Of a stretch of DNA of 64,000 nt, positions 3,563-63,727 are shown piece after piece; the stretch's first letter is position 1, and the number at the start of each line of letters is the position of its first letter. A program made the translations under genes and the position numbers. The notes below the pieces were generated by a model. The model worked only from the letters and a program-made list of their open reading frames with translations, searched no databases and had not been told where the DNA came from. Origin of the DNA: Candidatus Edwardsbacteria bacterium RifOxyA12_full_54_48 (lineage in GTDB: Bacteria; Edwardsbacteria; AC1; EtOH8); the NCBI GenBank assembly GCA_001777915.1, contig MFFN01000004.1:425744-489743 (forward strand), in the 5' to 3' direction.

Positions 3563-3570
3563 CGCTCCGA

Positions 3571-3604
3571 AAAAGCCCCGCTTCAACGGCGGGGCTTTTC
3601 ATTT
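3571..3604 (+). terminator. Rho-independent terminator
   Basis: GC stem GCCCCGC / GCGGGGC around a 7-nt loop, followed by a TTTTCATTT run, immediately after the stop of 476..3562. Confidence 0.6.
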
Positions 3605-3665
3605 GCATTCGGTCGGCAAAAATGGTATCCTTACTCTCGTTCAAAGATCAAAGGATTTTTAATTT

Positions 3666-47068: not shown

Positions 47069-48196
47069 ATGTCCCGCAAAAAAACATCCCTAGAAAAAAA
47101 CGTCCCGGACCAGGCCGGGGAGAATTCCACGTTAAAGCTGATCGAACGCTTGACCGCGGCTCCCGGGCCATCGGGCTACGAGACCCGGGCCGCCTTGGCC
47201 GCCGGTGAGGAGCTGGCCCCCTTCGCCACCAAGGTCAAGGTGGACAAGATGGGCAGCGTGGTGGCCTTCAAAAAGGGGCTGTCCCGGGACGGCAAAAAGA
47301 TCCTGCTGGCGGCCCATCTGGACGAGATCGGCCTGCTGATCACCGGCATCGAGCCGGGGGGATTCCTGCGCTTCACCCAGGTGGGCGGACTCGACGCCCG
47401 GGTGCTGCTGGGACAGGAGGTGCTGCTGCATCCGGTCGGCCGGTACGGCCCGGACACCCGGATCGCCCTGCCGGGCATCATCGGAGCCAAGCCGCCGCAT
47501 TTCCAGACCCCGGAGGAATCGAGCCAGGTGATCCCCCTGGAGGACCTGTATATCGACCTGGGGCTGGACGAGGCGGCAGCCAAAGCCAGGGTCTCCATCG
47601 GCGATCTGGCCACCCCGAGAATGCCCCTTACCAATCTCAAGAACGACCGGGCGGCCGGAAAGGCCATGGACAACCGGGCCTGCATCGCCATCATGGTCCA
47701 GGCCCTGGAGATACTCAGCAAATGCCATCATAGCTGGGATGTTTATGCGGTGGCCACCGTCCAGGAGGAGGTGTCCGGCCTGGGGGCGCTGACCTCGGCT
47801 TTCGAGATCCATCCCGACATCGGAATAGCCATAGACGTCACCCACGGCGACATGCCGGGGGTGCCCGACAGCGACACCTTCGCCATCGGCAAGGGGCCCA
47901 CCATCACCGTCGGGCCCAACATCCACCCGGCCATCGCCGACAAATTGAAGAAGGTGGCCAAGCGCGAGGAGATCCCCTTTCAGATAGAGCCCTGCGCCGG
48001 ACTAACCGGGACCGATGCGGTGGATATTCAGATATCCCAAGAGGGCATCCCCACCGGCCTGCTGGGCCTGCCCCTGCGCTACATGCACACCCCGGTGGAG
48101 ACCCTGGCGGCAGTGGACGTGGAGCGCTCGGCCAGATTGCTGGCCCGCTTCATCCAAGACCTGGACGATATAAACTTGGAATGGAAAGACGACTAA
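47069..48196 (+). CDS. M42-family (TET/FrvX-like) aminopeptidase, paralog 1
   Basis: LLAAHLDEIGLLITGIE, VQEEVSGLG, metal-ligand contexts typical of M42 glutamyl-aminopeptidase family. 375 aa. Confidence 0.8.
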   Translation: MSRKKTSLEKNVPDQAGENSTLKLIERLTAAPGPSGYETRAALAAGEELAPFATKVKVDKMGSVVAFKKGLSRDGKKILLAAHLDEIGLLITGIEPGGFLRFTQVGGLDARVLLGQEVLLHPVGRYGPDTRIALPGIIGAKPPHFQTPEESSQVIPLEDLYIDLGLDEAAAKARVSIGDLATPRMPLTNLKNDRAAGKAMDNRACIAIMVQALEILSKCHHSWDVYAVATVQEEVSGLGALTSAFEIHPDIGIAIDVTHGDMPGVPDSDTFAIGKGPTITVGPNIHPAIADKLKKVAKREEIPFQIEPCAGLTGTDAVDIQISQEGIPTGLLGLPLRYMHTPVETLAAVDVERSARLLARFIQDLDDINLEWKDD

Positions 48197-48237
48197 AAGA
48201 CCTGAACAAAAAATAAAACAGTTAGGCTTAAAACTAA

Positions 48238-48618
48238 ATGCTTACTCAAGGTATTGATATAATTTTAGAAAACGAAAAGGAAGGTTGGTTTCCACTCGCT
48301 CCCAGCAGCGGCCTTCGTGGAAAAGTTATCCGCACTATACCGGTTGATCCACCACAAGTGCCATTTTACTTGATACAACTTAATTCCCCTCTAGAAATTC
48401 AAGAACCCGCAAAAGACACACCATCTGGTCTTCGCCTTCAACTTTACAGCCATCTTGTTGTGCGCTCACGTTGGGTGGGGATACCGCTTGGCTCAAAACC
48501 GTCGATATCGGCACAGGTATTTCTTGTTCCCATTAATGCAACTTTGCCATCAACACCTTTAGAACTTAAGGATCATAATCCAGATATTTGGGCCTCATGC
48601 TCAATCGCGTCCCAATGA
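48238..48618 (+). CDS. Hypothetical ORF in a low-GC insert (may be non-coding)
   Basis: 126-aa ORF in ~40% GC DNA between two M42 paralogs. No recognisable family. Weak start context. Confidence 0.2.
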   Translation: MLTQGIDIILENEKEGWFPLAPSSGLRGKVIRTIPVDPPQVPFYLIQLNSPLEIQEPAKDTPSGLRLQLYSHLVVRSRWVGIPLGSKPSISAQVFLVPINATLPSTPLELKDHNPDIWASCSIASQ

Positions 48619-48668
48619 GAGGAGAGGCTCAAAGAAATCAGAATAATAATTTTAATACGGAACAAAAA

Positions 48669-49709
48669 ATGATAGACCTTAAACTGATAGCAGAGATCAC
48701 CAACGCTTTCGGGGTCAGCGGCTGCGAAGGCGAGATCCGCAACATCGTCCGCCAGCACATCACCAAGAACGTGGATGACATCCGGGTGGACGCCCTGGGA
48801 AACCTGATAGCCTACAAAAAAGCCAAGGGGGCAAAATCAGTCCCAAAGAGAACCAAGGTGATGCTGGCCGCCCACATGGACGAGGTGGGATTGATGGTCA
48901 CATCCATCGATAAATCGGGTTTTCTGCAGTTCGACAAGGTGGGGGGGATTGACAATCGGGTGCTGCTGGCCAAGAAGGTGCTGGTGGGAAAGGACCAGAT
49001 CCCCGGGGTGATCGGCTCCAAGGCTATCCATCTCATTGCTCGTAAAGGAGAACTTAAAAAAGTTTCTCCTTACAGCGATCTCTCCATAGACATCGGGGCC
49101 AGCAGCCAAGAGGACGCCCAGAAGTTCGTCTCCCCGGGCGATTATGTGATGTTCAACACCAGGTTCGAGGACTGGGGAAGGACCCTCAAGGCCAAGGCCT
49201 TTGACGATCGGATCGGCTGTTACCTGATAATCGAACTGCTGAAAGGTAAATACCCCTTTGACATCTACGCCGCCTTTACCACCCAGGAGGAGGTCGGCTT
49301 GCGGGGCGGCCGGGTGGCGGCCTATAAGGACGAGCCGGACATGGCCTTCATCCTGGAGGGCACCGGGGCCGGGGACATGCCCCAGCCCAAGGAGCGGGAC
49401 GAAAGCCTGGTGCCGGGACTGGGCCTGGGGCCGGTGATCACAATCATGGACCGCTCGGTGTTCTGCGACCAGGGCTTGGTGAAACTGCTGACCGACACCG
49501 CCCGGGCCAATCGGATCCCCCATCAGATCAAACGGCCCGGAATAGGCGGCACCGATGCCGGACGGATCCACCTGAGCAAGGGCGGCGTCCCCTCGGTGGT
49601 GCTGGCCATCCCCTCGCGCTACATCCACTCGCCGGTGTGCCTGTCCAGCAAAAAGGACATCCAGAACGCCCTGCGGCTGATGCAGCTGGCCCTGAAGAGG
49701 GTCAAATAA
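48669..49709 (+). CDS. M42-family aminopeptidase, paralog 2 (start at MIDLK; the ORF is open from 48588)
   Basis: MLAAHMDEVGLMVTSID, TTQEEVGLRGGRVAA, conserved C-terminal GGTDAGRIHL. Confidence 0.8.
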   Translation: MIDLKLIAEITNAFGVSGCEGEIRNIVRQHITKNVDDIRVDALGNLIAYKKAKGAKSVPKRTKVMLAAHMDEVGLMVTSIDKSGFLQFDKVGGIDNRVLLAKKVLVGKDQIPGVIGSKAIHLIARKGELKKVSPYSDLSIDIGASSQEDAQKFVSPGDYVMFNTRFEDWGRTLKAKAFDDRIGCYLIIELLKGKYPFDIYAAFTTQEEVGLRGGRVAAYKDEPDMAFILEGTGAGDMPQPKERDESLVPGLGLGPVITIMDRSVFCDQGLVKLLTDTARANRIPHQIKRPGIGGTDAGRIHLSKGGVPSVVLAIPSRYIHSPVCLSSKKDIQNALRLMQLALKRVK

Positions 49710-49767
49710 AAAAAGAGAGCCGGGGGCTCCCATTAAAGATCGTCGTTTATTGAATATCGGCGGCTGT

Positions 49768-50124
49768 TCATACCGCCGCAGCTATCTGCTCCAGAAGTTT
49801 TAGGGTGTCGAAAGGCTTGGAGACCACGTCTATCACGTTGAACTTTCCGGCCCGGGCCCGCAGCTCGGGGCTGCCGAAGGCGGTGATGATGATCACCGGA
49901 AGCTCCGGCCAGCGGTGACGGACCTCGCACAGCACCTCGATGCCGTCCATGCCGGGCAGCATGTAGTCCAGCAGCAGCAGGTCGGCCGCTTTTTTGCCCA
50001 TCTGCTCCAAGCCGCCCGGGCCGTCGTAGGCCACCATGGCCTCGTACCCCTCGGACTCCAGCAGGGTGGTCATCATCTCCCCCACTGCCGGCTCGTCGTC
50101 GATGATCATTATTTTCTTGTTCAT
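49768..50124 (-). CDS. Single-domain response-regulator receiver (CheY-like)
   Basis: MIIDDEPAV...LLLLDYMLPGMDG...PVIIITAFG...K: phospho-acceptor Asp, T/K positions all present. 118 aa. Confidence 0.8.
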   Translation of the reverse strand: MNKKIMIIDDEPAVGEMMTTLLESEGYEAMVAYDGPGGLEQMGKKAADLLLLDYMLPGMDGIEVLCEVRHRWPELPVIIITAFGSPELRARAGKFNVIDVVSKPFDTLKLLEQIAAAV

Positions 50125-50282
50125 CCGCTCTCCAGAAATGATACTGTCGGGGCTGCCGCCCCTTAACTGACCAATCAGTATATAACAATTTTTTTTACAA
50201 AGTCAAGCTTTTTCTGATCCGGCCAATACCCGCCGGGAACTTCTGCCGGATGATGTTGCGCCCCAAGCCCAGGATTTTATCA

Positions 50283-50311
50283 TTGACAGAGGGGACAAAA
50301 AGCCATAATAT
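50283..50311 (+). promoter_or_regulatory. Consensus-like sigma70 promoter TTGACA-N17-TAATAT upstream of M42 paralog 3
   Basis: TTGACA at 50283..50288, 17-nt spacer, TAATAT at 50306..50311. 68 bp upstream of the ATG at 50379. Confidence 0.45.
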
Positions 50312-50378
50312 TAACCGTTGCCCCTCGGTTTAACAGCTATTTATAAAAAAAAGACAACCCTTTATAAGGAAATATTTA

Positions 50379-51383
50379 ATGAAAGACATCATCAAAAGAC
50401 TCACCGAGACCTACGGCCCGTCCGGCAGCGAAAGGCAGATCCGGGAGCAGATCAAAAAAGAGATCCGGGGGCTGGCCGACCAGGTCAGCACCGATGTGCT
50501 GGGCAACCTGATAGCGATCAAGAAGGGCAAGGGCTCCCGGGTGATGGTGGCGGCCCATATGGACGAGATCGGGTTCATCGTTACCCATATAGACAAGAAC
50601 GGCTTCCTGCGCTTCTCCAACATCGGCGGGATCTACCCCTATAATATCATCGCCCAGCGGGTGATATTCGAGAACGGCCTTATCGGCACCATCAACGAGG
50701 AGCGTTCGGAGAAACCGGCCGATCCCCGGCGGCTGGACCGGATGTATATCGACATCGGCGTCAAGGATCATAAACAGGCCTCTGCCAGGGTATCGGTGGG
50801 CGACGTGGCCGGGTTTCACCGGAGCTGCGAATTCCTGGGCGACCGGGTCGTCGCCAAATCAATGGATGACCGGATCGGCTGCGCCATCATGATCGAGGCC
50901 ATGAAACAGCTTAAGAAAAGCCCCAACCAGATATATTTCGTTTTCACCACCCAGGAGGAGGTGGGGCTGCGGGGGGCCACCACCGCCGCTTTCGGGGTGG
51001 CCCCGGACCTGGGGATAGCGGTGGATATCACCGGAGCCTTCGATACTCCCGAGGAGAAGCCCAAGCTGCCTTCGGTGCTGGGAAAGGGGACCGCCATCAA
51101 GATCAAGGATGCCGGGATGCTGGCCCATCCGGGGGTGAAAAAACTGCTGGTGGATACCGCCCGGGCCGGCCGGATCCCCTACCAGTTTGACATCCTGGAG
51201 GGCGGGACCACCGACGGATCGGTGATCAACAAGACCAAGTCCGGCATTCCCACCGGGGTGCTGTCAGTACCCACCAGGTATGCCCACTCGGCCTCGGAGA
51301 TGGTGGATATGATTGACGTTAAAGCCACGGTGGACCTGCTGGTCAAAGTGCTCTCATCGAACCTCAGGGCCAAGGGATTCTAA
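50379..51383 (+). CDS. M42-family aminopeptidase, paralog 3
   Basis: MVAAHMDEIGFIVTHID, FTTQEEVGLRGATTAA, GGTTDGS. 334 aa. Confidence 0.8.
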   Translation: MKDIIKRLTETYGPSGSERQIREQIKKEIRGLADQVSTDVLGNLIAIKKGKGSRVMVAAHMDEIGFIVTHIDKNGFLRFSNIGGIYPYNIIAQRVIFENGLIGTINEERSEKPADPRRLDRMYIDIGVKDHKQASARVSVGDVAGFHRSCEFLGDRVVAKSMDDRIGCAIMIEAMKQLKKSPNQIYFVFTTQEEVGLRGATTAAFGVAPDLGIAVDITGAFDTPEEKPKLPSVLGKGTAIKIKDAGMLAHPGVKKLLVDTARAGRIPYQFDILEGGTTDGSVINKTKSGIPTGVLSVPTRYAHSASEMVDMIDVKATVDLLVKVLSSNLRAKGF

Positions 51384-52214: not shown

Positions 52215-52234
52215 CCGAAACTATAAAATTTCTC

Positions 52235-52263
52235 TTGACAATTTGGGACTAACCTGATATATT
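52235..52263 (+). promoter_or_regulatory. Candidate dnaA promoter TTGACA-N17-TATATT
   Basis: -35 TTGACA 52235..52240, 17-nt spacer, -10 TATATT 52258..52263, upstream of the DnaA-box cluster. Confidence 0.4.
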
Positions 52264-52348
52264 TACCAAGCTGACAAATAAATACGTATCCCCTTTATGA
52301 AATCGCGGACTTTATTTCCGTGGTTTCTTTTTGTTTTTATAGCCATCC

Positions 52349-52614
52349 TGTGGAAAACCTTGTGGATAACTTACCCCCAACGGTGTTTCGTATTAAGTCC
52401 TTGTTAAATCAAAAATTAGCCACAATTCTGGTTGTGTGGATAAACAATAAATAATCATTTAGATATTTATGTTAATTGTTCTATTGCAATGCATTATGCT
52501 GATTGACCACCTGTGGATAAATATGTTAAGAACCCGTAAATAGCGTTACCAGTAGTATATTAACTAGCAACCCTCAACAACCATTAAAAACACTGACTTT
52601 CTGATTGTGGATAT
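52349..52614 (+). other. oriC: DnaA-box cluster (candidate oriC / dnaA autoregulatory region)
   Basis: Three perfect TGTGGATAA boxes (complement of TTATCCACA) at 52361..52369, 52435..52443 and 52512..52520. One-mismatch boxes at 52349..52357 (TGTGGAAAA) and 52606..52614 (TGTGGATAT). All same orientation. AT-rich stretch 52440..52500. Directly upstream of dnaA. Confidence 0.7.
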
Positions 52615-52617
52615 CCT

Positions 52618-53958
52618 ATGAATCAACAAATACAAGCGCTGTGGGCCCAGTCCCAGGACAGGATCAAGGAACGGATAGGTTCCCAGAGTTTTGACACCTG
52701 GATAAAGCCGCTGACAGCCATGACGGTGGGCGATGACAGCCTGACCCTAAAGGTTCCCAACCACTTTTTTGTGGAATGGCTGGGGCAGCACTACCTTAAT
52801 ATGATGAAAGAGGTGGTTTCGGATATCTTTCATAAGCCCCTCTCCATAGTCCTGGTCCCTCCGGTGGGGGAAACTCAGGCCGCCGCCCGCCAGAAACCGG
52901 ATAGAACCGAATTTGTCCCGGCCCATCCGACCAGCGATAGCGGCCTCCGGGAGAGATATATCTTCGACACCTTCGTCATAGGAAAAAGCAACGAGTTCGC
53001 CTACGCCACCGCTTTCGCCACCGCCCAGGATCCCGGAAAACTGTACAACCCGCTGTTCATCTATGGCGGGGTGGGGCTGGGAAAGACCCATCTGATGCAG
53101 GCTATCGGCCATTTTACCAAGAGCAAGAGACCAAAGGCCCGGGTGCTGTACATACCGGCCGAGAATCTGATGAACGAGCTGGTCTATGCCATTCAGAACC
53201 GCAAGATGCTGGAGTTCAAAAATCGTTATCGTTCGCTGGATATCCTACTGCTGGACGATGTCCAATTCCTGTCAGAAAAATCCGGCCTGCAGGAGGAGAT
53301 CTTTCATACTTTCAATTCGCTGTACGACGCCCGCAAACAGATCGTCCTGACCTCCGATCGGCCGCCCAAGGATATATCCCACCTGGAGGAGCGCCTGGTA
53401 TCACGCTTTCAAAGCGGACTGGTGGCCGATATTCAGGCTCCGGACCTGGAGACCAGGGCGGCTATCTTAAAGAAAAAAGCCGAGTTGGACGGCCTCTCCA
53501 TTCCCAACGACGTCATCTATTTCATTGCCTCCTCGGTCAAATCAAACATCCGTGAGCTGGAGGGTTCATTGATAAGGGTAGTGGCCTTTTCCTCGGTGTC
53601 GGACCAGGAGCTGACGGTGGATTTCGCCCGCGAGGTCCTTAAGAACATCATCTCCCAGAAATCACGGCTGATATCCATCGAACTTATTCAGAAAATAGTG
53701 GCTAACTACTATTCCATACCCGAAGAGGCCCTCAAATCAAAAAGGAGGATCAAAAAACTGGTGCTGCCCAGGCAGCTGGCCATGTATCTGAGCCGGGAAC
53801 TGACCGCCGCCTCCCTCAACGACATCGGCAACCGCTTCGGCGGAAAGGACCACACCACGGTGCTGCATGCCATATCAAAGATAAAGAAAATGATAGCCTC
53901 GGACGATGAGATAACCTCTCAGGCCGATAGGATAACTGAGTTGATCAATGGTGGATAG
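52618..53958 (+). CDS. dnaA: Chromosomal replication initiator protein DnaA
   Basis: AAA+ Walker A GGVGLGKTHL, Walker B LLLDDVQFL, sensor/box VII, C-terminal DNA-binding helix (LSRELTAASLNDIGNRFGGKDHTTVLHA). Confidence 0.92.
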   Translation: MNQQIQALWAQSQDRIKERIGSQSFDTWIKPLTAMTVGDDSLTLKVPNHFFVEWLGQHYLNMMKEVVSDIFHKPLSIVLVPPVGETQAAARQKPDRTEFVPAHPTSDSGLRERYIFDTFVIGKSNEFAYATAFATAQDPGKLYNPLFIYGGVGLGKTHLMQAIGHFTKSKRPKARVLYIPAENLMNELVYAIQNRKMLEFKNRYRSLDILLLDDVQFLSEKSGLQEEIFHTFNSLYDARKQIVLTSDRPPKDISHLEERLVSRFQSGLVADIQAPDLETRAAILKKKAELDGLSIPNDVIYFIASSVKSNIRELEGSLIRVVAFSSVSDQELTVDFAREVLKNIISQKSRLISIELIQKIVANYYSIPEEALKSKRRIKKLVLPRQLAMYLSRELTAASLNDIGNRFGGKDHTTVLHAISKIKKMIASDDEITSQADRITELINGG

Positions 53959-54202
53959 AACCTTGATCTCTGCATTTAGCCCCTGCTTAATGTTGATCAC
54001 TGTTGACAACAGCGGCGGATATCAACAGCCGATCAAAAACATATCCCCATGATATACATTCTTTATTATTTTAAACAGCATGGCTTTATGCCAATCCCAC
54101 AACAATATCAAGAAATACTATTGACTTTTATTATAATTTAGATATATCATATATTAGTTATTAAGTATAAATTTAAAACCAGAAATTTGGAGCCGGGATC
54201 AA

Positions 54203-55312
54203 ATGAAATTTTCCGTTAACCAGGAGAAACTTTTCACCTGCCTGCAGAGCCTGATCGGGGTGGTGCCAACCAAGAGCACTTTTCCGGTCCTTACCAATAT
54301 CCTGATAGAGGCCAATAATAATAAGCTGAAATTATCTGCCACCGATCTCGAGATAGCGGCCGTAACCCAGATTGATGCCCAGACCGCTGGTAATGGTTCC
54401 ATCACCGTGCCGGCCAAACAGTTCTTCGAGATAATAAAGCAACTGCCGCCATTGAATATAGATCTGGATGTCAACGGCAATAAAGTGTCCATTAAATGTG
54501 ACCGCAGCCGATTCAATATCATTGGTCTCCCCAAGGAGGACTTTCCCAAGATACCGGAGATCAGCAAGGAGAAGAGCGTCAAACTCAGCAGCGGTATTCT
54601 GCAGAACATCATCAAAAAGACCTTGTTTGCTGTATCCACCGACAGCTCCCGTCCGGACCTGTGCGGGGTTTTCCTTCAGATGAGCGGCGATAAGCTGAAA
54701 GTGGTCACTACCGACGCCCACCGGTTGGCCATGCTGGAGACCATGATCCCGCCCATCTCACAGAACAGCGAACTGCTGCTGTCACCCAAAGGTTTGAACA
54801 TTGTCAACCGGATGCTTCCAGGCTCGGATACCGAGATCACGTTGCGGTTCGACGACAGCTATTCCCAGTTTAGTTTTGATGACACCCAGGTCTATGCCCG
54901 GCACATCGAGGGACCCTACCGTGATTACGAGAAGGCCATTCCCAAGAACAATAAAAAGACCCTGACCGTCAACGTGGACCTGCTGACCGCGGCGGTGCGC
55001 CGAGTGGCCATACTGTCCGACACCTTCACCCACCAGATCAGGCTTTCATTAAAGGCCGACAGCATCGAGCTCTCCAGCCAGACGGTGGATATCGGAGAGG
55101 CCCGGGAGACCATTGCCGCAGTATTCAAGGGTGAGGAGATGGAGATAGGATACAACGCCAGCTATCTGCTGGACATCATCAAGAACGTGGACTCCGAGGA
55201 GATGGTCTGCTCCCTGAATACCTCGTTGTCGGCCGCCCTGATCAATCCGGCCAAGCAGGCCGAGGACTACAACCTGATGTATCTATTGATGCCCATCCGC
55301 CTTCCGGAATAG
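54203..55312 (+). CDS. dnaN: DNA polymerase III subunit beta (sliding clamp)
   Basis: MKFSVNQEKL...LQSLIGVVPTKSTFPVLTNILIEA opening. Three-domain length (369 aa). Position immediately after dnaA. Confidence 0.9.
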   Translation: MKFSVNQEKLFTCLQSLIGVVPTKSTFPVLTNILIEANNNKLKLSATDLEIAAVTQIDAQTAGNGSITVPAKQFFEIIKQLPPLNIDLDVNGNKVSIKCDRSRFNIIGLPKEDFPKIPEISKEKSVKLSSGILQNIIKKTLFAVSTDSSRPDLCGVFLQMSGDKLKVVTTDAHRLAMLETMIPPISQNSELLLSPKGLNIVNRMLPGSDTEITLRFDDSYSQFSFDDTQVYARHIEGPYRDYEKAIPKNNKKTLTVNVDLLTAAVRRVAILSDTFTHQIRLSLKADSIELSSQTVDIGEARETIAAVFKGEEMEIGYNASYLLDIIKNVDSEEMVCSLNTSLSAALINPAKQAEDYNLMYLLMPIRLPE

Positions 55313-55464: not shown

Positions 55465-57723
55465 TTGGCCGCTGAGCAGAATATCAAACCACAGGAGACC
55501 AGCCTCTACGAGGTGGTGGATCTGCTGTGGAGACGAAAGACCCTGATCCTGGTCTGCCTGGCCGGGATATTGCTGCCCATCATCATCGCCAATTTCACCC
55601 TGCCGCCGGTCTATGAGAGCCAGACCACCATCATCTTCGAGCAAAGCCGGGAGCCTATCGCCGCCTTCGACGTCTCCGACGCTTTCAGCCGTAAGAGCTA
55701 CATCGTCAATCAGATCGAGGAGATCAAGGCTCGGACCCTGGCCGAGGAGGTGGCTCATAAACTGGCTCCCGAGACCGCCGCCGAGATACTCAAAGACCAG
55801 GGCCGGGGCCTGTCCCAGGAGGGGAGACGCCAACTGCTGTCCCAGCGTATAAAGAAAGGCATCTCGGCCGAGCCCATCAGGGACTCCGATGTGATCCTGA
55901 TAAAATTCCAGGGGCCCACTCCGGCCAGCGCCGCCCGGACGGTCAATCTGGTGGCCGAGACGGTCAAGGAGCGCAGCTCCCAGGTCAAGAGGGAGCAGGC
56001 CTCCTCCACCAGAAAATTCATCGAGGTCCAGCTGCCGGCGGTGGAGGCCGGGCTCTACAAGGCCGAGGACGCCATCAAGGGCTTCAAGGCCCGCAACCAG
56101 GTGGTATCGCTGTCCGACGAGGCCCGGGAGGTGCTGGCCCGGATGACCGAGATTGACAAGATGTACGCCGGCACCGTCACCCAGAAGATGGCCCTGGAGA
56201 AGAAACTGGAGGCCATCTACACCAAACTGGAATACAAGCCTGATTTCTCCGAGGGCAGCAGCAAAATGACCTCCGGCGCGGTGGCCGATTCGCTGCGAAA
56301 GAGCCTGTTGGATCTGCAGATCGAGGCCACCCAGCTTTCCATCAAGGGCTACCATCCGGAACACCCCCAGATATACAAACTGAACCGGCAGATCGAGGCC
56401 ACCAAGAACAAGCTGGTGGAGGAGCTGGCCAACATCAGCCGGGGGGGCCAGGCCAAGCCCATGCCGGAGATGTCCGACTTGCTGGCCCAGATACCGCCCC
56501 TCCAAATAGAACTGATCTCCCTGGAGGCCCGGGAGCTGGCCATCCGGGATTTCAACACCGGCTACGAAAGCGATCTCTCCAAGCTGCCCTACAAGGAGCT
56601 GGAGCTGACCCGCCTGCTGCGGGCCAAGGATGTCAACGAGAACATCTATAAGATGCTGCTGGAGAAGTACGAGGAGGCCAAGATCACCGAGGCCGGAAAG
56701 ATCGGCAACGTCCGGGTGATCGACCCGGCCAAGGAGCCGCTTTCGCCCATCAAGCCCCGCAAGGCACTGAATCTCCTGATCGGGCTGGTGGTGGGGCTGG
56801 TGCTGGGGGTGGGCCTGTCATTCTTCCTGGACTCCATGGACAATTCGGTCAAGACCGCCGAGGAGATCGAGACCAATTTCGGGATACCGGTGCTGGGGCT
56901 GATTCCCAGTATCCAGTCCGAGGGCCCCCGCAAGAAGAAGCGCAACGGCCGGGACGAGATCTCCAAGATCGCCTCCACCCTGGTGACCAAATACACCCCC
57001 CGCTCGCCCATCTCCGAGGCCTACCGGGCCATTCGGACCAACATCCAATTCTCCAAGATCGACGCTCCGCTGCGCTCCATAGTGGTGACCTCGGCCGCGC
57101 CCTCGGAGGGCAAGTCCACCACCGTGGCCAACCTGGCCTTCACCACCGCCCTGGCCGGGGCCAAGACCCTGCTGATAGACGCCGACCTGCGGCGCCCGGT
57201 GGTCCACTCGCTGTTCGGGCTGGAGCGGGAGCCGGGCATGACCAACATCCTGGCCGAGCGGCTGGCCCCGGAGAAGGTGATCAAGCCCTCCGGGGTGGAG
57301 AACCTGGACATTCTGACCTGCGGGGCCATCCCCCCCAACCCCTCGGAGCTTTTGGGCTCCCAGAGGATGAAGGAGCTGGTCCAGCAGTTGAAGGCCAAGT
57401 ACGACCTGGTGCTGTTCGACAGCCCGCCGGTGATCACCGTCACCGACACCGCTGTGCTGTCCAACCAGGTGGAGGGGGTGGTGCTGGTGGTGCTCTCCCA
57501 CGGCACCGATCGCCGGGCCCTGGCCAGGGCCAAGAGCCTGCTGAGCAACGTCAACGCCAATATCCTGGGATCGATCCTCAATAAGATCGACCTGACCGGG
57601 ATCGGCTCCAGCTACGATTACTACTATCACTACCATTATTACTACTACAGCGATGATGGCCAGAACGTCAAGCGCAAGGGAAGATTCTGGGACATCCTGC
57701 GTCCCGGGGGCCGGCGGGGATAG
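55465..57723 (+). CDS. Polysaccharide co-polymerase / tyrosine autokinase (Wzc/EpsB-type BY-kinase); ORF track places the start at TTG
   Basis: N-terminal Wzz-like TM + periplasmic coiled-coil region, second TM (LLIGLVVGLVLGVGLSFFL). Cytoplasmic P-loop kinase domain (Walker A SAAPSEGKSTTVANLA, Walker A' / B). C-terminal Tyr cluster YDYYYHYHYYYY. Confidence 0.8.
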   Translation: MAAEQNIKPQETSLYEVVDLLWRRKTLILVCLAGILLPIIIANFTLPPVYESQTTIIFEQSREPIAAFDVSDAFSRKSYIVNQIEEIKARTLAEEVAHKLAPETAAEILKDQGRGLSQEGRRQLLSQRIKKGISAEPIRDSDVILIKFQGPTPASAARTVNLVAETVKERSSQVKREQASSTRKFIEVQLPAVEAGLYKAEDAIKGFKARNQVVSLSDEAREVLARMTEIDKMYAGTVTQKMALEKKLEAIYTKLEYKPDFSEGSSKMTSGAVADSLRKSLLDLQIEATQLSIKGYHPEHPQIYKLNRQIEATKNKLVEELANISRGGQAKPMPEMSDLLAQIPPLQIELISLEARELAIRDFNTGYESDLSKLPYKELELTRLLRAKDVNENIYKMLLEKYEEAKITEAGKIGNVRVIDPAKEPLSPIKPRKALNLLIGLVVGLVLGVGLSFFLDSMDNSVKTAEEIETNFGIPVLGLIPSIQSEGPRKKKRNGRDEISKIASTLVTKYTPRSPISEAYRAIRTNIQFSKIDAPLRSIVVTSAAPSEGKSTTVANLAFTTALAGAKTLLIDADLRRPVVHSLFGLEREPGMTNILAERLAPEKVIKPSGVENLDILTCGAIPPNPSELLGSQRMKELVQQLKAKYDLVLFDSPPVITVTDTAVLSNQVEGVVLVVLSHGTDRRALARAKSLLSNVNANILGSILNKIDLTGIGSSYDYYYHYHYYYYSDDGQNVKRKGRFWDILRPGGRRG

Positions 57724-57844: not shown

Positions 57845-58852
57845 ATGTCTGACATTAAAACAGCGGTAGTGGGCTGCGGCCAGTGGGGCATCAACCAGGT
57901 CCGGACCTATGCCAATCTGCCCGGGGCTTATTTGGCCTGGCTGGTGGACGCCAGCCCCAAAAATCTTCAGCGGGCAAAAAGCTTCTCCCCGACCGCCAAA
58001 ACGTCCGGGGACCTTAAAGCGGCCCTGGAAGACAAGGATCTCGATGCGGTGGTGATCGCCACCAATTCCGAATCGCACCACGCCCTGGCCAAAATGTCTT
58101 TGGAGGCCGGCAAGCACGTGATGGTGGAGAAGCCCCTGGCCCTGAATGTCAAGGACGCCGAGGAGCTGGTGAAGATCGCCAAGGACAAAGATCTGATATT
58201 GATGACCGGCCACCTGCTGCTGTACCATCCGGCGGTCAGGTATTTGAAGGAGCTGGTGAAATCCGGCGAGCTGGGGCAGATACTGTACCTGTACTCCACC
58301 CGGGTCAACTTGGGCGCCATCCGCAAGAACGAGAACGCCCTGTGGAGCCTGGCCCCCCACGACATCTCGGTGATGCTCTATTTGATGGACCAGAACCCGG
58401 ACCAGGCCCTGGCCAACGGAAAATGCTTCCTGCAGAAGGGCATCGAGGACGTGGTGTTCTTCTCGCTGGATTTCCCCGGCGGGCAGGTGGCCCAGGCCCA
58501 GGTGAGCTGGCTGGACCCCCACAAGATCCGCAAGTTCACGGTGGTGGGCAGCAAGAAGATGGTGACCTTCGACGACATGGAGGCCACCGAGAAGATCCGG
58601 ATCTACGACAAGGGGGTCAACCAGGAGAAGCGCTACGGCAGCTATGACGAGGTGCTGACCCTAAGGGACGGGGATATCCACATCCCGTATTTCAAGATGC
58701 AGGAACCGCTGAAGATAGAGGCCAATCATTTCATCGAATGCGTCAGGGAACACAAGCAGCCCATAAGCGACGGGCAGAACGGGCTGGAGGTGGTGAAGAT
58801 CCTGGCGGCGGTGAGCCTTTCGCTGAAAGAGGAACGAGCGGTCAAAATATAG
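57845..58852 (+). CDS. Gfo/Idh/MocA-family NAD(P)-dependent oxidoreductase (sugar-nucleotide dehydrogenase-like)
   Basis: Rossmann opening KTAVVGCGQWG. Conserved EKPLAL motif. Family-typical C-terminal alpha/beta domain. 335 aa. Confidence 0.8.
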   Translation: MSDIKTAVVGCGQWGINQVRTYANLPGAYLAWLVDASPKNLQRAKSFSPTAKTSGDLKAALEDKDLDAVVIATNSESHHALAKMSLEAGKHVMVEKPLALNVKDAEELVKIAKDKDLILMTGHLLLYHPAVRYLKELVKSGELGQILYLYSTRVNLGAIRKNENALWSLAPHDISVMLYLMDQNPDQALANGKCFLQKGIEDVVFFSLDFPGGQVAQAQVSWLDPHKIRKFTVVGSKKMVTFDDMEATEKIRIYDKGVNQEKRYGSYDEVLTLRDGDIHIPYFKMQEPLKIEANHFIECVREHKQPISDGQNGLEVVKILAAVSLSLKEERAVKI

Positions 58853-58898
58853 ATAAAAGAACGCCCGGGGTCAAGATAATTAATAGAACAAATTTTTA

Positions 58899-58921
58899 GC
58901 CGGTCTTGCGACCGGTTTTTT
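58899..58921 (+). terminator. Rho-independent terminator after the oxidoreductase gene
   Basis: GCCGGTC ttgc GACCGGT followed by TTTTT. Confidence 0.55.
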
Positions 58922-59282
58922 AATTGCCCGGGATGACTCACCCCCCAGCCCCTTCTCTCTGAAGATAGAAGAAGAAAGGGGATTGCTTCGTTTGTAAATC
59001 TTCGTAGTTTTCTCGCAATGACGCGGGAACCGGCTGAAACGGGGTTGGGTCTGAGGCCCGCCCCTTCGATATTTCTAATTAGGGACAGTACGCCGTCAGG
59101 TCTTTGCAATATAAACCAGATTACTTCGTCTGAAAATTAAGGTTGCTTTCTCGTAATGACACTATGCCAAAGGTTAAAAAATCTTTGTGCCTTGGTGCTT
59201 TGGTGGTTGAAACCCCCGTCTGTTATTGCCTAAAATTTAAGCACAATTAATGCTTGCTTTAAACCGGAGGTTGTTATAAAAT

Positions 59283-59300
59283 AAGATGTTAAAACATCTT
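59283..59300. promoter_or_regulatory. 18-bp perfect palindrome AAGATGTTAAAACATCTT, candidate operator overlapping the promoter of the HD-GYP/cyclase operon
   Basis: Perfect inverted repeat immediately 5' of a TTGCCA ... TATAAT-like promoter region, ~55 bp upstream of the ATG at 59357. Confidence 0.4.
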
Positions 59301-59356
59301 TGCCAAATCACTTAGACAATATAATAAACTATAATGCCTTTTCAGGGAGGGATGCC

Positions 59357-61027
59357 ATGCCTGCGCCCAAGAAGAAAAAAACCGTCCACGGGGCCGTCTC
59401 GCGCCGAATGGCCCTGATGCCCACCGCCAAGAGCGAGCTCTCCAGCCTCAAGATGAAGCTGAAGGTGCTCCAAAGGGTCAACGAGATCGCCGCCAGCACC
59501 TTCGATGTCCAGCCGCTGTTGGACCGGGCCATGGACCTGGTGACAGAGATCGCGCCCTCCGAGGCCGGGTCCTTATTACTGCTGTCCTCCGACCGCACAA
59601 CTTTGAAATTCTCCATCGTCAAGGGGTCGGCCTCCGCCAAGCTGGAGGGCCTGGAGATCCCCGTCGGGCAGGGTATCGCCGGCTGGGTGGCCAAGACCGG
59701 CATCCCGCTGACCGTCAACGATGTGGCCTCCGAGCCCAAGTGGAAGAAGGAGATCGCCGATAATGTGGATTTCCCCACCCGCAGCATCCTGTGCGTGCCG
59801 TTGAAATCCCGGGCCGAGGTGATCGGGGTGGTGGAGCTGATCAACAAGCTGAGGGACGAGGACTATAACGACGACGACCTGGAGATCATCGAGCTGCTGG
59901 GAGCCCATCTTTCCACCCTGATAGAGAACAGCCGGCTGTATTCCGAGGCCCGGGAGAAGGTGGAGCGCATCTCCGCCATGGCCGAAACGTCAGCCCTGAT
60001 CTCCTCCTCGCTGGATGTCAAAAGGGTGCTGGAGACGGTGATGAATGTGGCCAAGGACGTCATCGACGCCGAGGCCTCGTCCATATTTTTATACGACGAG
60101 GAGAAGCACGAGTTCTTCTTCGAGATCGCCACCGGCGATGCCGGCGATGCGGTCAAGCAGATCCGGGTGCCCTGGGGCAAGGGGATGGTGGGCTGGGCGG
60201 CCGAGCACATGCAGACCCTGTTGGTGCCGGACGTCACCAAGGACCCCCGCTTCTATTCCAAGGTGGACGAGAAGTCAAAATTCCAGACCCGCAACGCCAT
60301 CACCGTGCCCCTGAAGCCCAAGAACAAGCTGATCGGGGTGGCCCAGGTGCTCAACAAGAAGGGCGGGCTGTTCTCCCGGGAGGACGTGGAACTGTTCGAG
60401 ACCCTGGCCCGCCAGGCGGCGGTGGCCATCGAGAACGCCAGCCTGTACACCGACCTCCAGGAGCTGTTTTTGAATTCCATCCGCACCGTGGTCAGCCTGA
60501 TAGACGCCAAGGACGACTATACCGCCGGCCATTCCTCCCGGGTCACCCAGTACGCCCTGATGATCGCCGACCAATTGGGATATGACACCGAGAACCGCAA
60601 AAGGCTGGAACTGGCGGCCCTGCTGCACGACGTGGGCAAGATCGGGATGCCGGATGCCATCCTTAAAAAACCCTCCGGCCTGACCGCCGAGGAATTCGCC
60701 ATCGTCAAGGACCATCCCAACAAGGGGGCCGAGGCCCTGGAGCCCATCAAGCAGATGAAAGCCATCATCCCCGGGGTGCGCTACCACCACGAGAAGCTGG
60801 ACGGCAAGGGGTATCCGGCCGGCCTGTCCGGCGACCAGGTGCCGATGGACGCCCAGATCATCTGCGTGGGCGACTCCTACGATGCCATGAACTCCGATCG
60901 CCCCTACCGGAAAGGGCTGGGGATGGAGGAATCGGTCCGAAGATTGCGCCAGGACAGCGGAACCCAGTTCAATCCCAAACTGGTGGAAGCATTCGTATCG
61001 GCTTTAGAGAATGAGGAGAAGAAATGA
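59357..61027 (+). CDS. GAF-GAF-HD-GYP protein (putative c-di-GMP phosphodiesterase); start at MPAPKKKK with AGGGAGGG RBS
   Basis: Two GAF-like domains (..GIAGWVAKTG.., ..GMVGWAAEH..). HD-GYP motifs HDVGKIG and HHEKLDGKGYP. Confidence 0.8.
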   Translation: MPAPKKKKTVHGAVSRRMALMPTAKSELSSLKMKLKVLQRVNEIAASTFDVQPLLDRAMDLVTEIAPSEAGSLLLLSSDRTTLKFSIVKGSASAKLEGLEIPVGQGIAGWVAKTGIPLTVNDVASEPKWKKEIADNVDFPTRSILCVPLKSRAEVIGVVELINKLRDEDYNDDDLEIIELLGAHLSTLIENSRLYSEAREKVERISAMAETSALISSSLDVKRVLETVMNVAKDVIDAEASSIFLYDEEKHEFFFEIATGDAGDAVKQIRVPWGKGMVGWAAEHMQTLLVPDVTKDPRFYSKVDEKSKFQTRNAITVPLKPKNKLIGVAQVLNKKGGLFSREDVELFETLARQAAVAIENASLYTDLQELFLNSIRTVVSLIDAKDDYTAGHSSRVTQYALMIADQLGYDTENRKRLELAALLHDVGKIGMPDAILKKPSGLTAEEFAIVKDHPNKGAEALEPIKQMKAIIPGVRYHHEKLDGKGYPAGLSGDQVPMDAQIICVGDSYDAMNSDRPYRKGLGMEESVRRLRQDSGTQFNPKLVEAFVSALENEEKK

Positions 61028-63297
61028 GCAATGTCATAAGGAGCAAAAAGACCACCGGGGCCCTGGTGGGCATCGCCGTGGTGGCCGCGGTGCTGGCTAT
61101 ATCATATCTATTTCCCAGCCTGTTCCAGGGCATGGAGAACAAGACCTACGACCTTCGTTATCGACTGCGGGTAGGGCAGATGGGAGAGCAGGACATAGAT
61201 GATGTCATTATAGTGGACATCGACGACCAGTCCCTGGCCAAGCTGGGGCGTTTCTACAACTGGCCACGACTGTACCACGCCAAGGTGGCCGACTACCTGG
61301 CCCAAGGCGGGGCTTCGGCAGTGGCTTTCGACATCTTCTTTGTGGAGAGTGACAGCCTGATGCCGGATGTTGTCCAGCTGTTTGAGGATGCCAAGACAGA
61401 GAATATATCATCACAACTGAAGGACCTGAAGATACCGCTAACCCCCGCCCAGCTCACCTCGACCATAGATGCGGTGCTTTACTCTTGGGGATACGACCTT
61501 GATTTTGCCGCCGCCACCAGGTCCAGCGGCAACGTCTACTTTCCCTTCTACCTTACCACTGGCGAACCGGACGACAGCTCCGACCTTGGCACGCGTAAAT
61601 ATTCCTACCTTCTTCCGGCAGATGCCACCGAAAAATTCAAATATCTTAACATTGCCGGGGACCTGTACCAGGTGGCCAGCATCTTCCCGCCGGTGCCGGT
61701 CCTGCTGGAATCGGCCCGGGGAACAGGGTATTACAACATTGAATTGGATGAAGACGGGACGGCCCGAAGGATCCCGTTATTTATGGCCCTCAACGACCAC
61801 AGTTATCCATCCATGGACTTCCAAATAGTGCTGGATAAAATGGGGGTGGGCAAGGACCAAGTTGCCGTCGAACTGGGAAAGTTTATAAAATGCGGAGACA
61901 AACTAAAGATCCCCATTGACAATGAAGGCCGGATGCTGATCAGCTATTTCGGGCAATTCAAGAAATTCCGGTATATTTCTTATTCCGACGTGTTGATGGA
62001 ACTGGTGCCGGCCGAGTATTTCAAAGACAAGATAGTGATCGTCGGGGCCACCGCCGCCGGCCTGATGGACCTGCGGGTGGTGCCGTTCTCCAACCAGTTT
62101 CCCGGGCCGGAGATCCATGCCAATATCATGGAGACATTGCTTACCGGAAAGTTCGTGACAGTGGTCTCCTGGCATATACAACTGGCCCTGCTGATAGCGA
62201 TCGGCCTGCTGACGGTATTCGTTTCCCTAAGGTTCAAGCCGGTCAATTCCGGTCTGATCCTGACCGGGCTGGTGGTGGCTTATTTTGTGGCCGCAACGGC
62301 GCTGTTCGACAAATCATTGATCTGGGTGGAGATGGTGCGCCCGCTGGCGGTGGTGCTGTTCACCAACATGGCCATCCTGGGGTATCGCTATCTGACCGAG
62401 GAGAAACAGAAGGTCTGGATCAAGAACATGTTCCAGGGCTACATGTCCAAGGATCTGGTGGACAAGATAATGGCCAACCCCGAGATGCTGCTGATGGGCG
62501 GCGACAAGAAGGAGGTCACGGTCTTCTTCTCCGACATCAAGGGCTTTTCTAGCTTCTCTGAGAAACTGGGGACCCCGGAACGCCTGATCGCCCTGATCAA
62601 CGAGTACCTGGGGGCCATGTCCGATGTGGTGCTGGAATACGGCGGCTACATCAGCAAGTACGAGGGCGACGCCATCATGGCCTTCTGGGGCGCCCCCACC
62701 GACGACCCCAAGCACGCCGAGACATGCATCAAATGCGTCTGGGCCATGAACCAGCGTCTGCAGATACTCAATGCCGACCTGGCCAAGAGGAACATGCCCA
62801 ATCTTTTCACCCGGTTCGGGATGAACACCGGCATGGTGACGGTGGGCAACGTGGGTTCGGAAAAGAAGAAGAGCTACACCGCCATGGGAGACTCCATCAA
62901 CCTGGGCTCGCGGCTGGAGGGGGCCAACAAGGAATATGGCACGGCCATCATGATGTCGGAGTTCACCTACGCCAAGGTCAAGGGCCTGTACCCGGTGCGG
63001 GAGCTGGACATGCTGCGGGTGGTGGGCAAGGAACAGCCGGTGCGGGTGTACGAACTGCTGGGTCTGTCCCAGGCCGACGTCAGCGAAAAGAAAAAGAAGG
63101 CGGTGGAGATCTACCTGAAGGGCCTGGAGCTTTATCGGGGCAAGCAGTGGGACCAGGCTGAGGCCGTGTTCCGGCAGGCCCTGGAAGTGGATCCCGAAGA
63201 CGGACCCAGCCAGGCCTACATCGGCCGCTGCGAGGATTTCAAGGTGCTGCCGCCGCCGGAGAACTGGGACGGCGTGTTCGTGATGAAGACCAAGTAG
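61024..63297 (+). CDS. CHASE2 sensor domain + class III adenylate/guanylate cyclase catalytic domain + C-terminal TPR
   Basis: N-terminal TM then CHASE2 block (VIIVDIDDQSLAKLGRFYNWPR...AVAFDIFF). Three more TM helices. Cyclase motifs (VTVFFSDIKGFSSFSE ... YEGDAIMAFWGAP ... GMNTGMVTVGNVGS). TPR tail. ATGA overlap with upstream HD-GYP gene. Confidence 0.8.
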   Translation: MSNVIRSKKTTGALVGIAVVAAVLAISYLFPSLFQGMENKTYDLRYRLRVGQMGEQDIDDVIIVDIDDQSLAKLGRFYNWPRLYHAKVADYLAQGGASAVAFDIFFVESDSLMPDVVQLFEDAKTENISSQLKDLKIPLTPAQLTSTIDAVLYSWGYDLDFAAATRSSGNVYFPFYLTTGEPDDSSDLGTRKYSYLLPADATEKFKYLNIAGDLYQVASIFPPVPVLLESARGTGYYNIELDEDGTARRIPLFMALNDHSYPSMDFQIVLDKMGVGKDQVAVELGKFIKCGDKLKIPIDNEGRMLISYFGQFKKFRYISYSDVLMELVPAEYFKDKIVIVGATAAGLMDLRVVPFSNQFPGPEIHANIMETLLTGKFVTVVSWHIQLALLIAIGLLTVFVSLRFKPVNSGLILTGLVVAYFVAATALFDKSLIWVEMVRPLAVVLFTNMAILGYRYLTEEKQKVWIKNMFQGYMSKDLVDKIMANPEMLLMGGDKKEVTVFFSDIKGFSSFSEKLGTPERLIALINEYLGAMSDVVLEYGGYISKYEGDAIMAFWGAPTDDPKHAETCIKCVWAMNQRLQILNADLAKRNMPNLFTRFGMNTGMVTVGNVGSEKKKSYTAMGDSINLGSRLEGANKEYGTAIMMSEFTYAKVKGLYPVRELDMLRVVGKEQPVRVYELLGLSQADVSEKKKKAVEIYLKGLELYRGKQWDQAEAVFRQALEVDPEDGPSQAYIGRCEDFKVLPPPENWDGVFVMKTK

Positions 63298-63364: not shown

Positions 63365-63727
63365 TTGCGTATGGCGCAATTGCACAATAAACCAGAATAT
63401 CAACAAAGAAGAAAATTTCTGCGTAATAACTCAACCCGGGCCGAGATAATACTCTGGCGATTTTTAAAGAAAAAACAATTGAACGGTTTGAAGTTCCGGC
63501 GCCAGCACAGCATCGGCGGGTTTATTGTTGACTTTTATTGCCCCGAAAAAAGGCTGGCCATAGAGCTGGACGGCGACGTTCACGAAGAGAAAAAACAAGC
63601 GACCTATGATAAAGCCCGGCAGAAGACCATAGAGGCCCTGGGAATAAAAGTGTTAAGATTTACCAATGAAGACGTTATACAAAACGTAGAGGATGTGCTT
63701 AAGGCCATATCGGCTGAAGCCTGTTGA
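63365..63727 (+). CDS. DUF559 / Vsr-like endonuclease-domain protein
   Basis: TRAEIILWRFLKKKQLNGLKFRRQHSIGGFIVDFYCPEKRLAIELDGDVHEE...D...R...LGIKVLRF matches DUF559 pattern. 120 aa. Confidence 0.75.
   Translation: MRMAQLHNKPEYQQRRKFLRNNSTRAEIILWRFLKKKQLNGLKFRRQHSIGGFIVDFYCPEKRLAIELDGDVHEEKKQATYDKARQKTIEALGIKVLRFTNEDVIQNVEDVLKAISAEAC

Follow-up and report, generated by a model that had tools for sequence, protein, structure and literature searches.

Positions 58922-63297 of a 64,000-nt stretch of the Candidatus Edwardsbacteria bacterium RifOxyA12_full_54_48 genome (contig MFFN01000004.1, positions 425,744 to 489,743; the whole 64-kb stretch is hereafter called the window) contain two adjacent genes on the plus strand: one for a GAF-GAF-HD-GYP phosphodiesterase of 556 aa (59357-61027) and one for a protein of 757 aa with a CHASE2 domain, a class IIIb adenylate cyclase domain and a TPR region (61024-63297). 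The region may be read as a self-contained two-gene second-messenger operon, which would be driven by a promoter of its own and whose leader would be short (about 66-69 nt) and unstructured. In the proposed mechanism, an extracytoplasmic signal would be sensed by the CHASE2 protein, presumed to lie in the membrane, and the fused class IIIb adenylate cyclase would answer with cyclic AMP (cAMP); this would then be bound by the GAF tandem of the co-transcribed GAF-GAF-HD-GYP protein, and cAMP binding would switch the hydrolysis by the HD-GYP domain of cyclic di-GMP (c-di-GMP), or possibly of 3'3'-cyclic GMP-AMP (3'3'-cGAMP).

Taken as a whole, this explanation, in which a relay operon has a short leader, the DNA further upstream is an insertion built of repeats and an inverted repeat at the promoter is either young or due to chance, appears rather probable. 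Its most specific element is put forward more tentatively, with slightly less than an even chance of being correct: this is a dedicated, co-transcribed relay leading from CHASE2 through cAMP and the GAF domains to an HD-GYP enzyme that lowers c-di-GMP, representing a split version, with a diffusible messenger, of the CHASE2-GAF-HD-GYP sensors found in UBP13. The relay, with its ligand, its direction of regulation and its substrate, is proposed because of homology, gene adjacency and precedent in the literature; a passage of information from cAMP to c-di-GMP is plausible, and its principle is already known from Tlr0485, Lcd1 and Bd1971.

Organization and conservation of the gene pair

The start of the cyclase gene overlaps the stop codon of the HD-GYP gene by ATGA ('gaagaaATGAgc'), and a GAGGAG Shine-Dalgarno sequence lies ahead of the overlap. 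The HD-GYP gene is itself preceded by the Shine-Dalgarno sequence GGGAGGG (59345-59351, plus strand), which is located 5 nt ahead of the ATG and is kept in the relatives L003 and L005. An earlier note on this DNA, made from its letters and open reading frames (ORFs), had described the two ORFs as coupled by the ATGA overlap, in agreement with the coordinates and the sequence found here; its domain calls also correspond to those of Pfam, which recognizes two GAF domains and HD_5/HD in the first protein and CHASE2, Guanylate_cyc and a weak TPR match in the second.

Identical copies of the HD-GYP protein are found on 24 public contigs, and its closest species-level relatives belong to metagenome-assembled genomes of Edwardsbacteria/UBP2, with identities of 97-78% for the loci L003-L012 and of 55% for L013. 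The order of the two genes, HD-GYP and then CHASE2-cyclase, is kept in L003-L013 and in L015, and the two genes are also neighbors in L318, the deepest relative within Edwardsbacteria, whose cyclase shows 48% identity; the adjacency is conserved in every Candidatus Edwardsbacteria relative found. No HD-GYP neighbor is present beside the CHASE2-cyclases of other lineages, which show 34-38% identity, and no cyclase neighbor beside the more distant HD-GYP homologs. In L013 an ORF of 142 aa (5675-6103), with no Pfam match, stands between the HD-GYP and the cyclase genes. A different organization is found in UBP13, where one protein of 755 aa (L016, 2918-5185; also in L017) displays the architecture CHASE2-GAF-HD-GYP and is a fused counterpart of the two-gene Edwardsbacteria arrangement; this architecture is also included in the list of Galperin & Chou (bioRxiv 10.1101/2021.11.05.467447).

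The CHASE2-cyclase protein

The CHASE2 domain occupies the N-terminal part of the second protein (PF05226, E 5.2e-59, residues 21-397) and is accompanied by a cyclase domain (PF00211, E 5.5e-20), both detected by Pfam. The best solved relatives of the latter are class IIIb adenylate cyclases, the top one being CyaB from P. aeruginosa (3R5G, E 1.5e-34). By an established rule for class III cyclases, the choice between ATP and GTP depends on two residues, which are Lys and either Thr or Asp in adenylate cyclases. Alignments revealed that the first specificity residue is Lys in the window cyclase, in CyaB and in the engineered adenylate-cyclase 6FHT, while it is Glu in the guanylate cyclase Cya2 (2W01); the second is Thr in the window cyclase, the same as in CyaB. 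Moreover, FFSDIKGF, ISKYEGD (containing the Lys), SYTAMGD (containing the Thr), the N..R motif and both metal-binding Asp residues are invariant across 11 cyclase orthologs. The prediction of nucleotide specificity, which the earlier note had suggested as a check, gave the residues of an adenylate cyclase of class IIIb, and because of this Lys/Thr pair the CHASE2-cyclase is predicted to be an enzyme that probably makes cAMP.

The HD-GYP protein and its GAF tandem

The HD_5 domain of the first protein was recognized by Pfam with an E-value of 2.1e-38, and the HD-GYP catalytic motifs are all present (AGHSSR, LLHDVGK, DHP, YHHEKLDGKGYP and GDSYDAM), together with HHEKLDGKGYP. The HD, HHE..GYP and D motifs are kept across the HD-GYP orthologs, in a comparison that leaves out L008, L009 and L011, whose HD-GYP genes are intact by tblastn. 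Among solved structures, PmGH (4MCW) comes closest (E 7e-62, residues 204-550), and the solved HD-GYP relatives comprise both c-di-GMP and 3'3'-cGAMP enzymes; by homology, the protein probably hydrolyzes c-di-GMP, or possibly 3'3'-cGAMP.

The GAF tandem matches first of all the CyaB2 tandem (1YKD, E 5e-33), and then PDE2A (1e-26), 5W10 (2e-22), PDE5 and PDE10, with E-values ranging from 5e-33 to 4.5e-16. GAF domains that do not bind cyclic nucleotide monophosphates (cNMPs), such as those of DevS, PtsP and NlhH, score from about 6e-10 to 6e-06, well behind the cNMP-binding ones. Among the families compared, the tandem most resembles the cNMP-binding GAFs and in the first place the cAMP-binding tandem of CyaB2, which makes cAMP its candidate ligand.

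Some observations weigh against the relay proposed above. The second-best solved match of the HD-GYP protein is the 3'3'-cGAMP phosphodiesterase 5Z7C, which makes the substrate uncertain; the closest solved HD-GYP protein, PmGH, has a GAF domain without an identified ligand (PMC4159591); and only in the closest clade do the two genes overlap by ATGA, spacers of 20-550 nt separating them in L008-L013. The view of the earlier note that one operon joins c-di-GMP hydrolysis to cyclic nucleotide synthesis is nonetheless supported, and it is sharpened by the synteny, by the Lys/Thr residues of the cyclase and by the cNMP-type GAF domains.

If the relay is confirmed, it would represent, as far as the literature consulted shows, the first adenylate cyclase found together with its cAMP-gated c-di-GMP phosphodiesterase in one conserved operon, and an uncultured candidate phylum would provide a compact and genetically linked form of cross-talk from cAMP to c-di-GMP. 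Most GAF-HD-GYP enzymes have no ligand assigned to them, and one of them would here be given a candidate cognate cyclase. Specialists would hardly be surprised, since cAMP-gated c-di-GMP enzymes are already established in the literature, with Lcd1 and Bd1971 besides Tlr0485.

Predicted promoter and leader of the operon

The non-coding gap before the HD-GYP gene extends up to 59356; it measures 504 nt from stop to start, or 434 nt when counted from the end of the terminator hairpin. In a crude ORF map this gap is the longest of the window, as had been claimed, the next ones measuring 473 and 403 nt. The gene directly upstream of it codes for a Gfo/Idh/MocA oxidoreductase (57845-58852, plus strand, Pfam) and is followed by an intrinsic terminator, AGCCGGTCTTGCGACCGGTTTTTT (58898-58922, plus strand), which was identified by a terminator scan.

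Comparison of the orthologous loci revealed that TTGCTT-N17-TAnAAT is the sole upstream element common to all 11 of them (the window and L003-L012), in at least five upstream gene contexts; it lies 41-166 nt ahead of the start of the protein match, while the flanking sequence differs. In the window this element corresponds to a predicted promoter (59254-59282, plus strand), with TTGCTT as -35 (59254-59259), a spacer of 17 nt and TAAAAT as -10 (59277-59282), the latter ending 74 nt before the ATG. A promoter-like site is also present in L318, about 35 nt ahead of its ATG. Transcription would start around 59288-59291, giving a leader of about 66-69 nt, and the predicted 5' untranslated region folds worse than shuffled sequences (z = +1.12). 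Because the conserved promoter puts the start near 59289, the DNA upstream of it is predicted to lie outside the transcript.

This promoter assignment has its own weak points. It is deduced from conservation and from a sigma-70-like layout, and the sigma-70 consensus may not be that of the host phylum. TTGCTT matches TTGACA at three of six positions, and a sigma-70 scan omitted the site, listing TTGAAA-18-TAAAAT at 59207-59236, from which the leader would be about 115 nt long. This alternative promoter is not conserved in L003 or L005 and was rejected. The same applies to a near-palindrome, AAGCAC-AATTA-ATGCTT, which overlaps the -35 and is not conserved in L003 or L005 either.

The earlier note had interpreted the ~430 nt as a structured, riboswitch-like leader. 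A transcribed cis-regulatory leader of this kind, whether a riboswitch for c-di-GMP, for cAMP or for another ligand, would agree with the length of the intergenic region, with its local hairpins and GC-rich island, and with the ~90% identity of positions 59013-59210 in L003. Indeed, the GC-rich island was borne out: the GC content reaches 0.56 at 59000-59099 and falls to 0.31-0.39 downstream of it, and the centroid structure and composition profile place there a GC-rich hairpin of 9 bp, GGGGTTGGGTCTGAGGCCCGCCCC (59041-59064, plus strand). However, an Rfam cmscan of 58700-59500 at E<=10 returned seven matches, the best of which was eukaryotic long non-coding RNA noise, with no riboswitch family and nothing near the gathering score, and the 434 nt gave a folding z of -0.16 against dinucleotide shuffles. 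Furthermore, in L005, which shows 95% protein identity and has the same upstream gene and terminator, both the repeat copies described below and the GC island are missing; the distal ~330 nt are absent from L005 and from all the other orthologous loci besides L003, and the GC-rich hairpin, absent from L005, is common only to L003. This 97% relative is a near-identical strain, so that its similarity carries no weight, and the first repeat copy is truncated even there. Finally, the conserved promoter is located downstream of the region.

A leader spanning the ~430 nt is very improbable on this evidence. The earlier note had regarded three observations as speaking against it, namely an upstream region not conserved in relatives carrying the same operon, no Rfam match, and a transcription start just upstream of the ATG with most of the region untranscribed. 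Each of them was either made or is strongly implied: only TTGCTT-N17-TAnAAT is common to the orthologous loci, no riboswitch family was found in the scan reported above, and the predicted promoter would leave most of the region out of the transcript. The ~330 nt between terminator and promoter are lineage-specific filler made of dispersed small repeats, and in all probability not leader RNA. The upstream region, which had drawn attention, is ordinary, consisting of inserted repeat DNA ahead of what is predicted to be a normal promoter.

The spacing between terminator and promoter leads to the same view. The distance from the terminator hairpin, GCCGGTC..GACCGG, to the -35 is 32 nt in L006, 50 nt in L007, 146 nt in L005 and 336 nt in the window, and because it differs in this way in the four lineages, the window lineage has gained about 300 nt between the two elements. 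The hairpin, GCCGGTC-NNNN-GACCGG, is located at ~3840-3858 in L006, ~3834-3852 in L007, ~3736-3754 in L005 and 58899-58917 in the window. The gene that precedes it codes for a BY-kinase in L006, for a TPR protein in L007 and for the Gfo/Idh/MocA oxidoreductase in L005 and in the window; the terminator hairpin appears to travel with the promoter region of the operon.

No further copy of the distal region was found in the window and in 78 loci (680 kb). In L003 a perfect 7-bp inverted junction, GTCATTGaagtcgCAATGAC, replaces the first repeat copy (70-100), and the contig ends 90 nt upstream, which suggests that the DNA was rearranged, or the assembly interrupted, at the repeat.

The distal region might also encode an independent small RNA or a small protein. 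It contains a 40-aa ORF at 59018-59140, the promoter-like site at 59207-59236 and the hairpin at 59041-59064; however, no Rfam match and no excess folding energy were found, the ORF lacks a Shine-Dalgarno sequence, a T-run terminator is missing and the region is conserved only in the near-identical strain. An independent product of this type is scarcely more credible than the long leader.

The inverted repeat at the predicted promoter

An inverted repeat, AAGATGTT-AA-AACATCTT (59283-59300), directly follows the -10 and extends across the predicted transcription start. It had been described as a perfect 18-bp palindrome abutting the promoter: the position is correct, while the element consists of 8-bp arms, AAGATGTT and AACATCTT, around a non-symmetric AA, so that its reverse complement differs at two positions. 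Inverted repeats of equal quality occur 37 times in the 64-kb window, and about 3-4% of 434-nt shuffles contain one; by itself, the element is only marginally beyond chance.

The inverted repeat, the 42-nt repeats described in the next section, or both, could be protein-binding sites specific to this operon, acting as operator or upstream activating sequence. The inverted repeat occupies the interval from the -10 to about +11, where operators are classically found; L005 has it unchanged, and only ~3-4% of shuffles contain such an element. Conversely, it is broken in L003, the 97% relative (GAGATGTTAAAACATAGT), and absent from L004 and L006-L012, that is, from all the other clades, and the window holds the 37 comparable elements just mentioned; the 42-nt repeats, for their part, belong to a dispersed family that occurs in unrelated contexts and in both orientations, and they are absent from L005. 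A role of this kind is unlikely, and what likelihood it retains falls mostly on the inverted repeat, which may be a young, lineage-specific operator at best and may be due to chance; the operator assignment is made with low confidence.

A dispersed family of hairpin repeats upstream of the predicted promoter

The earlier note had reported two direct repeats in the upstream region, each preceded by CTTCGT. The string TTCTCGYAATGAC does occur exactly twice without mismatch (59010-59022 and 59148-59160), but the real unit is longer, the two direct repeats being 42 nt each, 76% identical and 138 nt apart. Likewise, CTTCGT is present in both, but at different distances, since in the true register GATTGCTTCGT aligns with GATTACTTCGT. 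Copy 1 (58981-59022, minus strand) reads on that strand GTCATTGCGAG..CGAAGCAATC and is an exact match to GATTGCTTCG-N21-CTCGCAATGAC; copy 2 (59119-59160, minus strand) is a GATTAC..GTAATGAC variant.

The two copies belong to a very widespread dispersed hairpin family, GTCATTGCGAG-hairpin-CGAAGCAATC, and are not parts of an aptamer. The pattern GATTGCTTCG-N(5-35)-CTCGCAATGAC, with 21 fixed bases and about one chance match expected, was found in at least 120 IMG/VR contig stretches, and GATTRCTTCGT-N(12-28)-TTTCTCGYAATGAC in at least 119 stretches of metagenomes that came from oceans, soils, sediments and digesters. Among the matches listed, typical copies are 26-32 nt long, with an ATTGC/GCAAT stem and unpaired bases that are conserved; their middle varies and is usually complementary to itself. 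At the free R/Y positions, 99 of the 103 distinct copies among these matches have G-C, four have A-T and none is mixed. Copy 1 matches all the fixed bases of the family, which are 21, or 25 in the extended form; copy 2 shows a double change, G to A and C to T, which preserves the ATTGC/GCAAT stem and gives the A-T variant, as in the four copies just mentioned. The orientation of the listed repeats relative to flanking co-directional genes shows no bias (69 vs 66), which argues for an element acting at the DNA level rather than for a cis-acting RNA. An Rfam scan at the gathering threshold of 12 loci rich in canonical copies gave nothing, indicating that the repeat is not an Rfam family, and a literature search with the 11-mers of the repeat returned only unrelated primer matches.

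Other short repeats surround the two copies. An imperfect hairpin read from the sequence, CCCCTTCTCT..AGAAGAAAGGGG (58949-58981), abuts copy 1, and the same layout, with a CCTCTCCC-loop-GGGAGAGG hairpin followed directly by GATTGCTTCG, is found in L081, L095, L186 and L195. Downstream of copy 2 the sequence contains the tandem 8-mers CTTTGTGC CTTGGTGC TTTGGTGG TTGAAA (59183-59212, plus strand). In L100, L175 and L304, CTNTGTGNCTNTGTGGTNAA motifs stand within 60 nt after a hairpin repeat, accounting for three of the six occurrences of the motif in 1.83 Mb; the window 8-mer variant is outside this search pattern, and its likeness to the CTTTGTGC CTTTGTGG T(A/G)AA type was judged by eye. A diverged tandem 8-mer, CTATCTGTGACTCTGCGGTAAAA, is present at the equivalent place in L005. 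The distal region is a mosaic of dispersed repeats, composed of the CCCCTTCTCT..AGAAGAAAGGGG hairpin, the 42-nt copies and the CTTTGTGC-type 8-mers.

Clustering of the neighboring ORFs revealed one family enriched beside the hairpin repeat, consisting of single-domain GIY-YIG proteins of ~95 aa (PF01541 by Pfam); among the matches listed, 13 of 16 of these ORFs are at most 65 nt from a repeat. Examples from the loci L199-L317 are L221 (9312-9599), L280 (37-885), L257 (1545-1958 and 6532-6876) and L313 (617-925), and the repeat, GATTGCTTCG..CTCGCAATGAC, is usually located just 5' of the GIY-YIG start codon, in either orientation. NCBIfam gave no informative family for these ORFs. According to Chenal et al. 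2025 (PMC11893778), ssnA genes are flanked by NTS (CGTCATTCCCGCGMAVGCGGGAATCYRG) and by the related SRM hairpin repeats, which the Ssn GIY-YIG nucleases cleave in single-stranded form. Repeats of the canonical NTS type, such as TGTCATTCCCGCGAAAGCGGGAATCCAG, share their contigs with the GTCATTGCGAG..CGAAGCAATC family in L239, L259, L289, L306, L314, L106, L109 and others, and because of this co-occurrence one genome can carry several related hairpin-repeat classes.

A number of findings tell against a close assignment of the window copies to these elements. The window contains no GIY-YIG gene that could be found. The published SRM string, HGTCWYN(0-2)YYVSBRHN(0-5)WNVSBRGN(0-2)RNCYNB (PMC11893778), matches the NTS control and neither the two window copies nor canonical members of the family. 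The window copies are also without the central hairpin of the family, both AT-rich middles (21 nt in copy 1) having a minimum free energy of 0.0, while 76% of the listed family middles fold better per nt. A search of 680 kb, covering the 64-kb window and the related loci, turned up neither another copy nor a half-site. The window copies look degenerate and decayed, and because the published string misses the repeat it is called only SRM-like: it resembles an SRM and is not a proven one. The SRM-like family and its GIY-YIG neighbors are the most useful by-product of the analysis, since an abundant, cross-phylum hairpin family that escapes the published SRM motif and stands beside small GIY-YIG genes could widen the known targets of the newly described Ssn nuclease family.

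Probable replication origin and neighboring genes

The stretch 52215-55312 of the window also carries dnaA (52618-53958) and dnaN (54203-55312). The 403-nt gap that precedes dnaA holds a cluster of six DnaA boxes (52349-52614), of which three are perfect (TTATCCACA); this is likely the replication origin, and the minimum of the cumulative GC skew is not far away. A role of the AT-rich, repeat-bearing region in the origin could be considered, since dnaA and dnaN are only ~4-5 kb away and the cumulative GC-skew minimum falls near 56-58 kb; however, all six clustered boxes are at 52349-52614 and none is found in 58853-59356. The distribution of DnaA boxes rules out this role, whose probability is negligible.

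Upstream of the Gfo/Idh/MocA gene lies a BY-kinase/Wzz gene (55465-57723, plus strand). Directly 3' of the operon, a DUF559 gene (63365-63727, plus strand, Pfam), with a Vsr-like endonuclease fold, is also found in L005, with 82% identity, and in part in L010. In L004, the 92% relative, the end of the upstream gene (~3300-3760) reads by eye as a candidate EAL domain, which, if real, would put another c-di-GMP enzyme beside the operon. Three paralogous M42 glutamyl-aminopeptidase genes stand in a row at 47069-51383 (47069-48196, 48588-49709 and 50379-51383).

Comparison with known systems

The upstream region shares with c-di-GMP-I/II and other riboswitches of Rfam only its position ahead of a c-di-GMP-related gene, and differs from them in that it matches none of their covariance models, is not conserved and does not fold stably. 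The resemblance of the repeat family of the window copies to NTS/SRM is broader: in both cases a short hairpin repeat has conserved flanks of fixed orientation, with GTCAT(T) on the 5' side and (A)ATC on the 3' side (the window element being on the minus strand), and both occur in many copies and many phyla beside ~95-aa single-domain GIY-YIG genes. The window family, however, has an ATTGC/GCAAT stem with an internal loop (CGAG / CGAAG) that is conserved and an inner hairpin that varies, and its copies in the window are degenerate and have no Ssn gene nearby.

The cyclase has in common with CyaB (3R5G) and with Spirulina CyaC (1WC0) the Lys/Thr pair, the two metal-binding Asp residues and the transition-state Asn/Arg, and with the CHASE2-sensor cyclases the N-terminal CHASE2 sensor. 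It differs from both groups in its C-terminal TPR and in the obligate position of its gene beside the HD-GYP gene throughout Edwardsbacteria.

Among the HD-GYP enzymes, PmGH from Persephonella marina (4MCW, PMC4159591) shares the HD, HHE..GYP and D motifs with the window protein. PmGH has a single GAF domain and a trinuclear iron center, with no linked cyclase described, whereas the window protein has two GAF domains and an adjacent cyclase gene. A functional precedent is Tlr0485 from Thermosynechococcus vulcanus, which is described as a GAF-HD-GYP phosphodiesterase that acts on c-di-GMP and is activated by cAMP (Enomoto et al. 2020, as reported in PMC8846402 and bioRxiv 10.1101/2021.11.05.467447). 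According to these descriptions, on which the comparison is based, cNMP-type GAF domains are fused N-terminally to an intact HD-GYP domain in both proteins, and the proposed logic, in which cAMP acts on c-di-GMP hydrolysis, is alike; the window protein differs in having two GAF domains and a co-transcribed candidate cognate adenylate cyclase.

Finally, the CHASE2-HD-GYP one-component sensors listed by Galperin & Chou resemble the window pair in that CHASE2 serves as the input and an HD-GYP domain that degrades c-di-GMP as the output. In those sensors both functions are found on one protein, whereas in the window they are divided between two, with a diffusible cyclic nucleotide presumably passing from one to the other.

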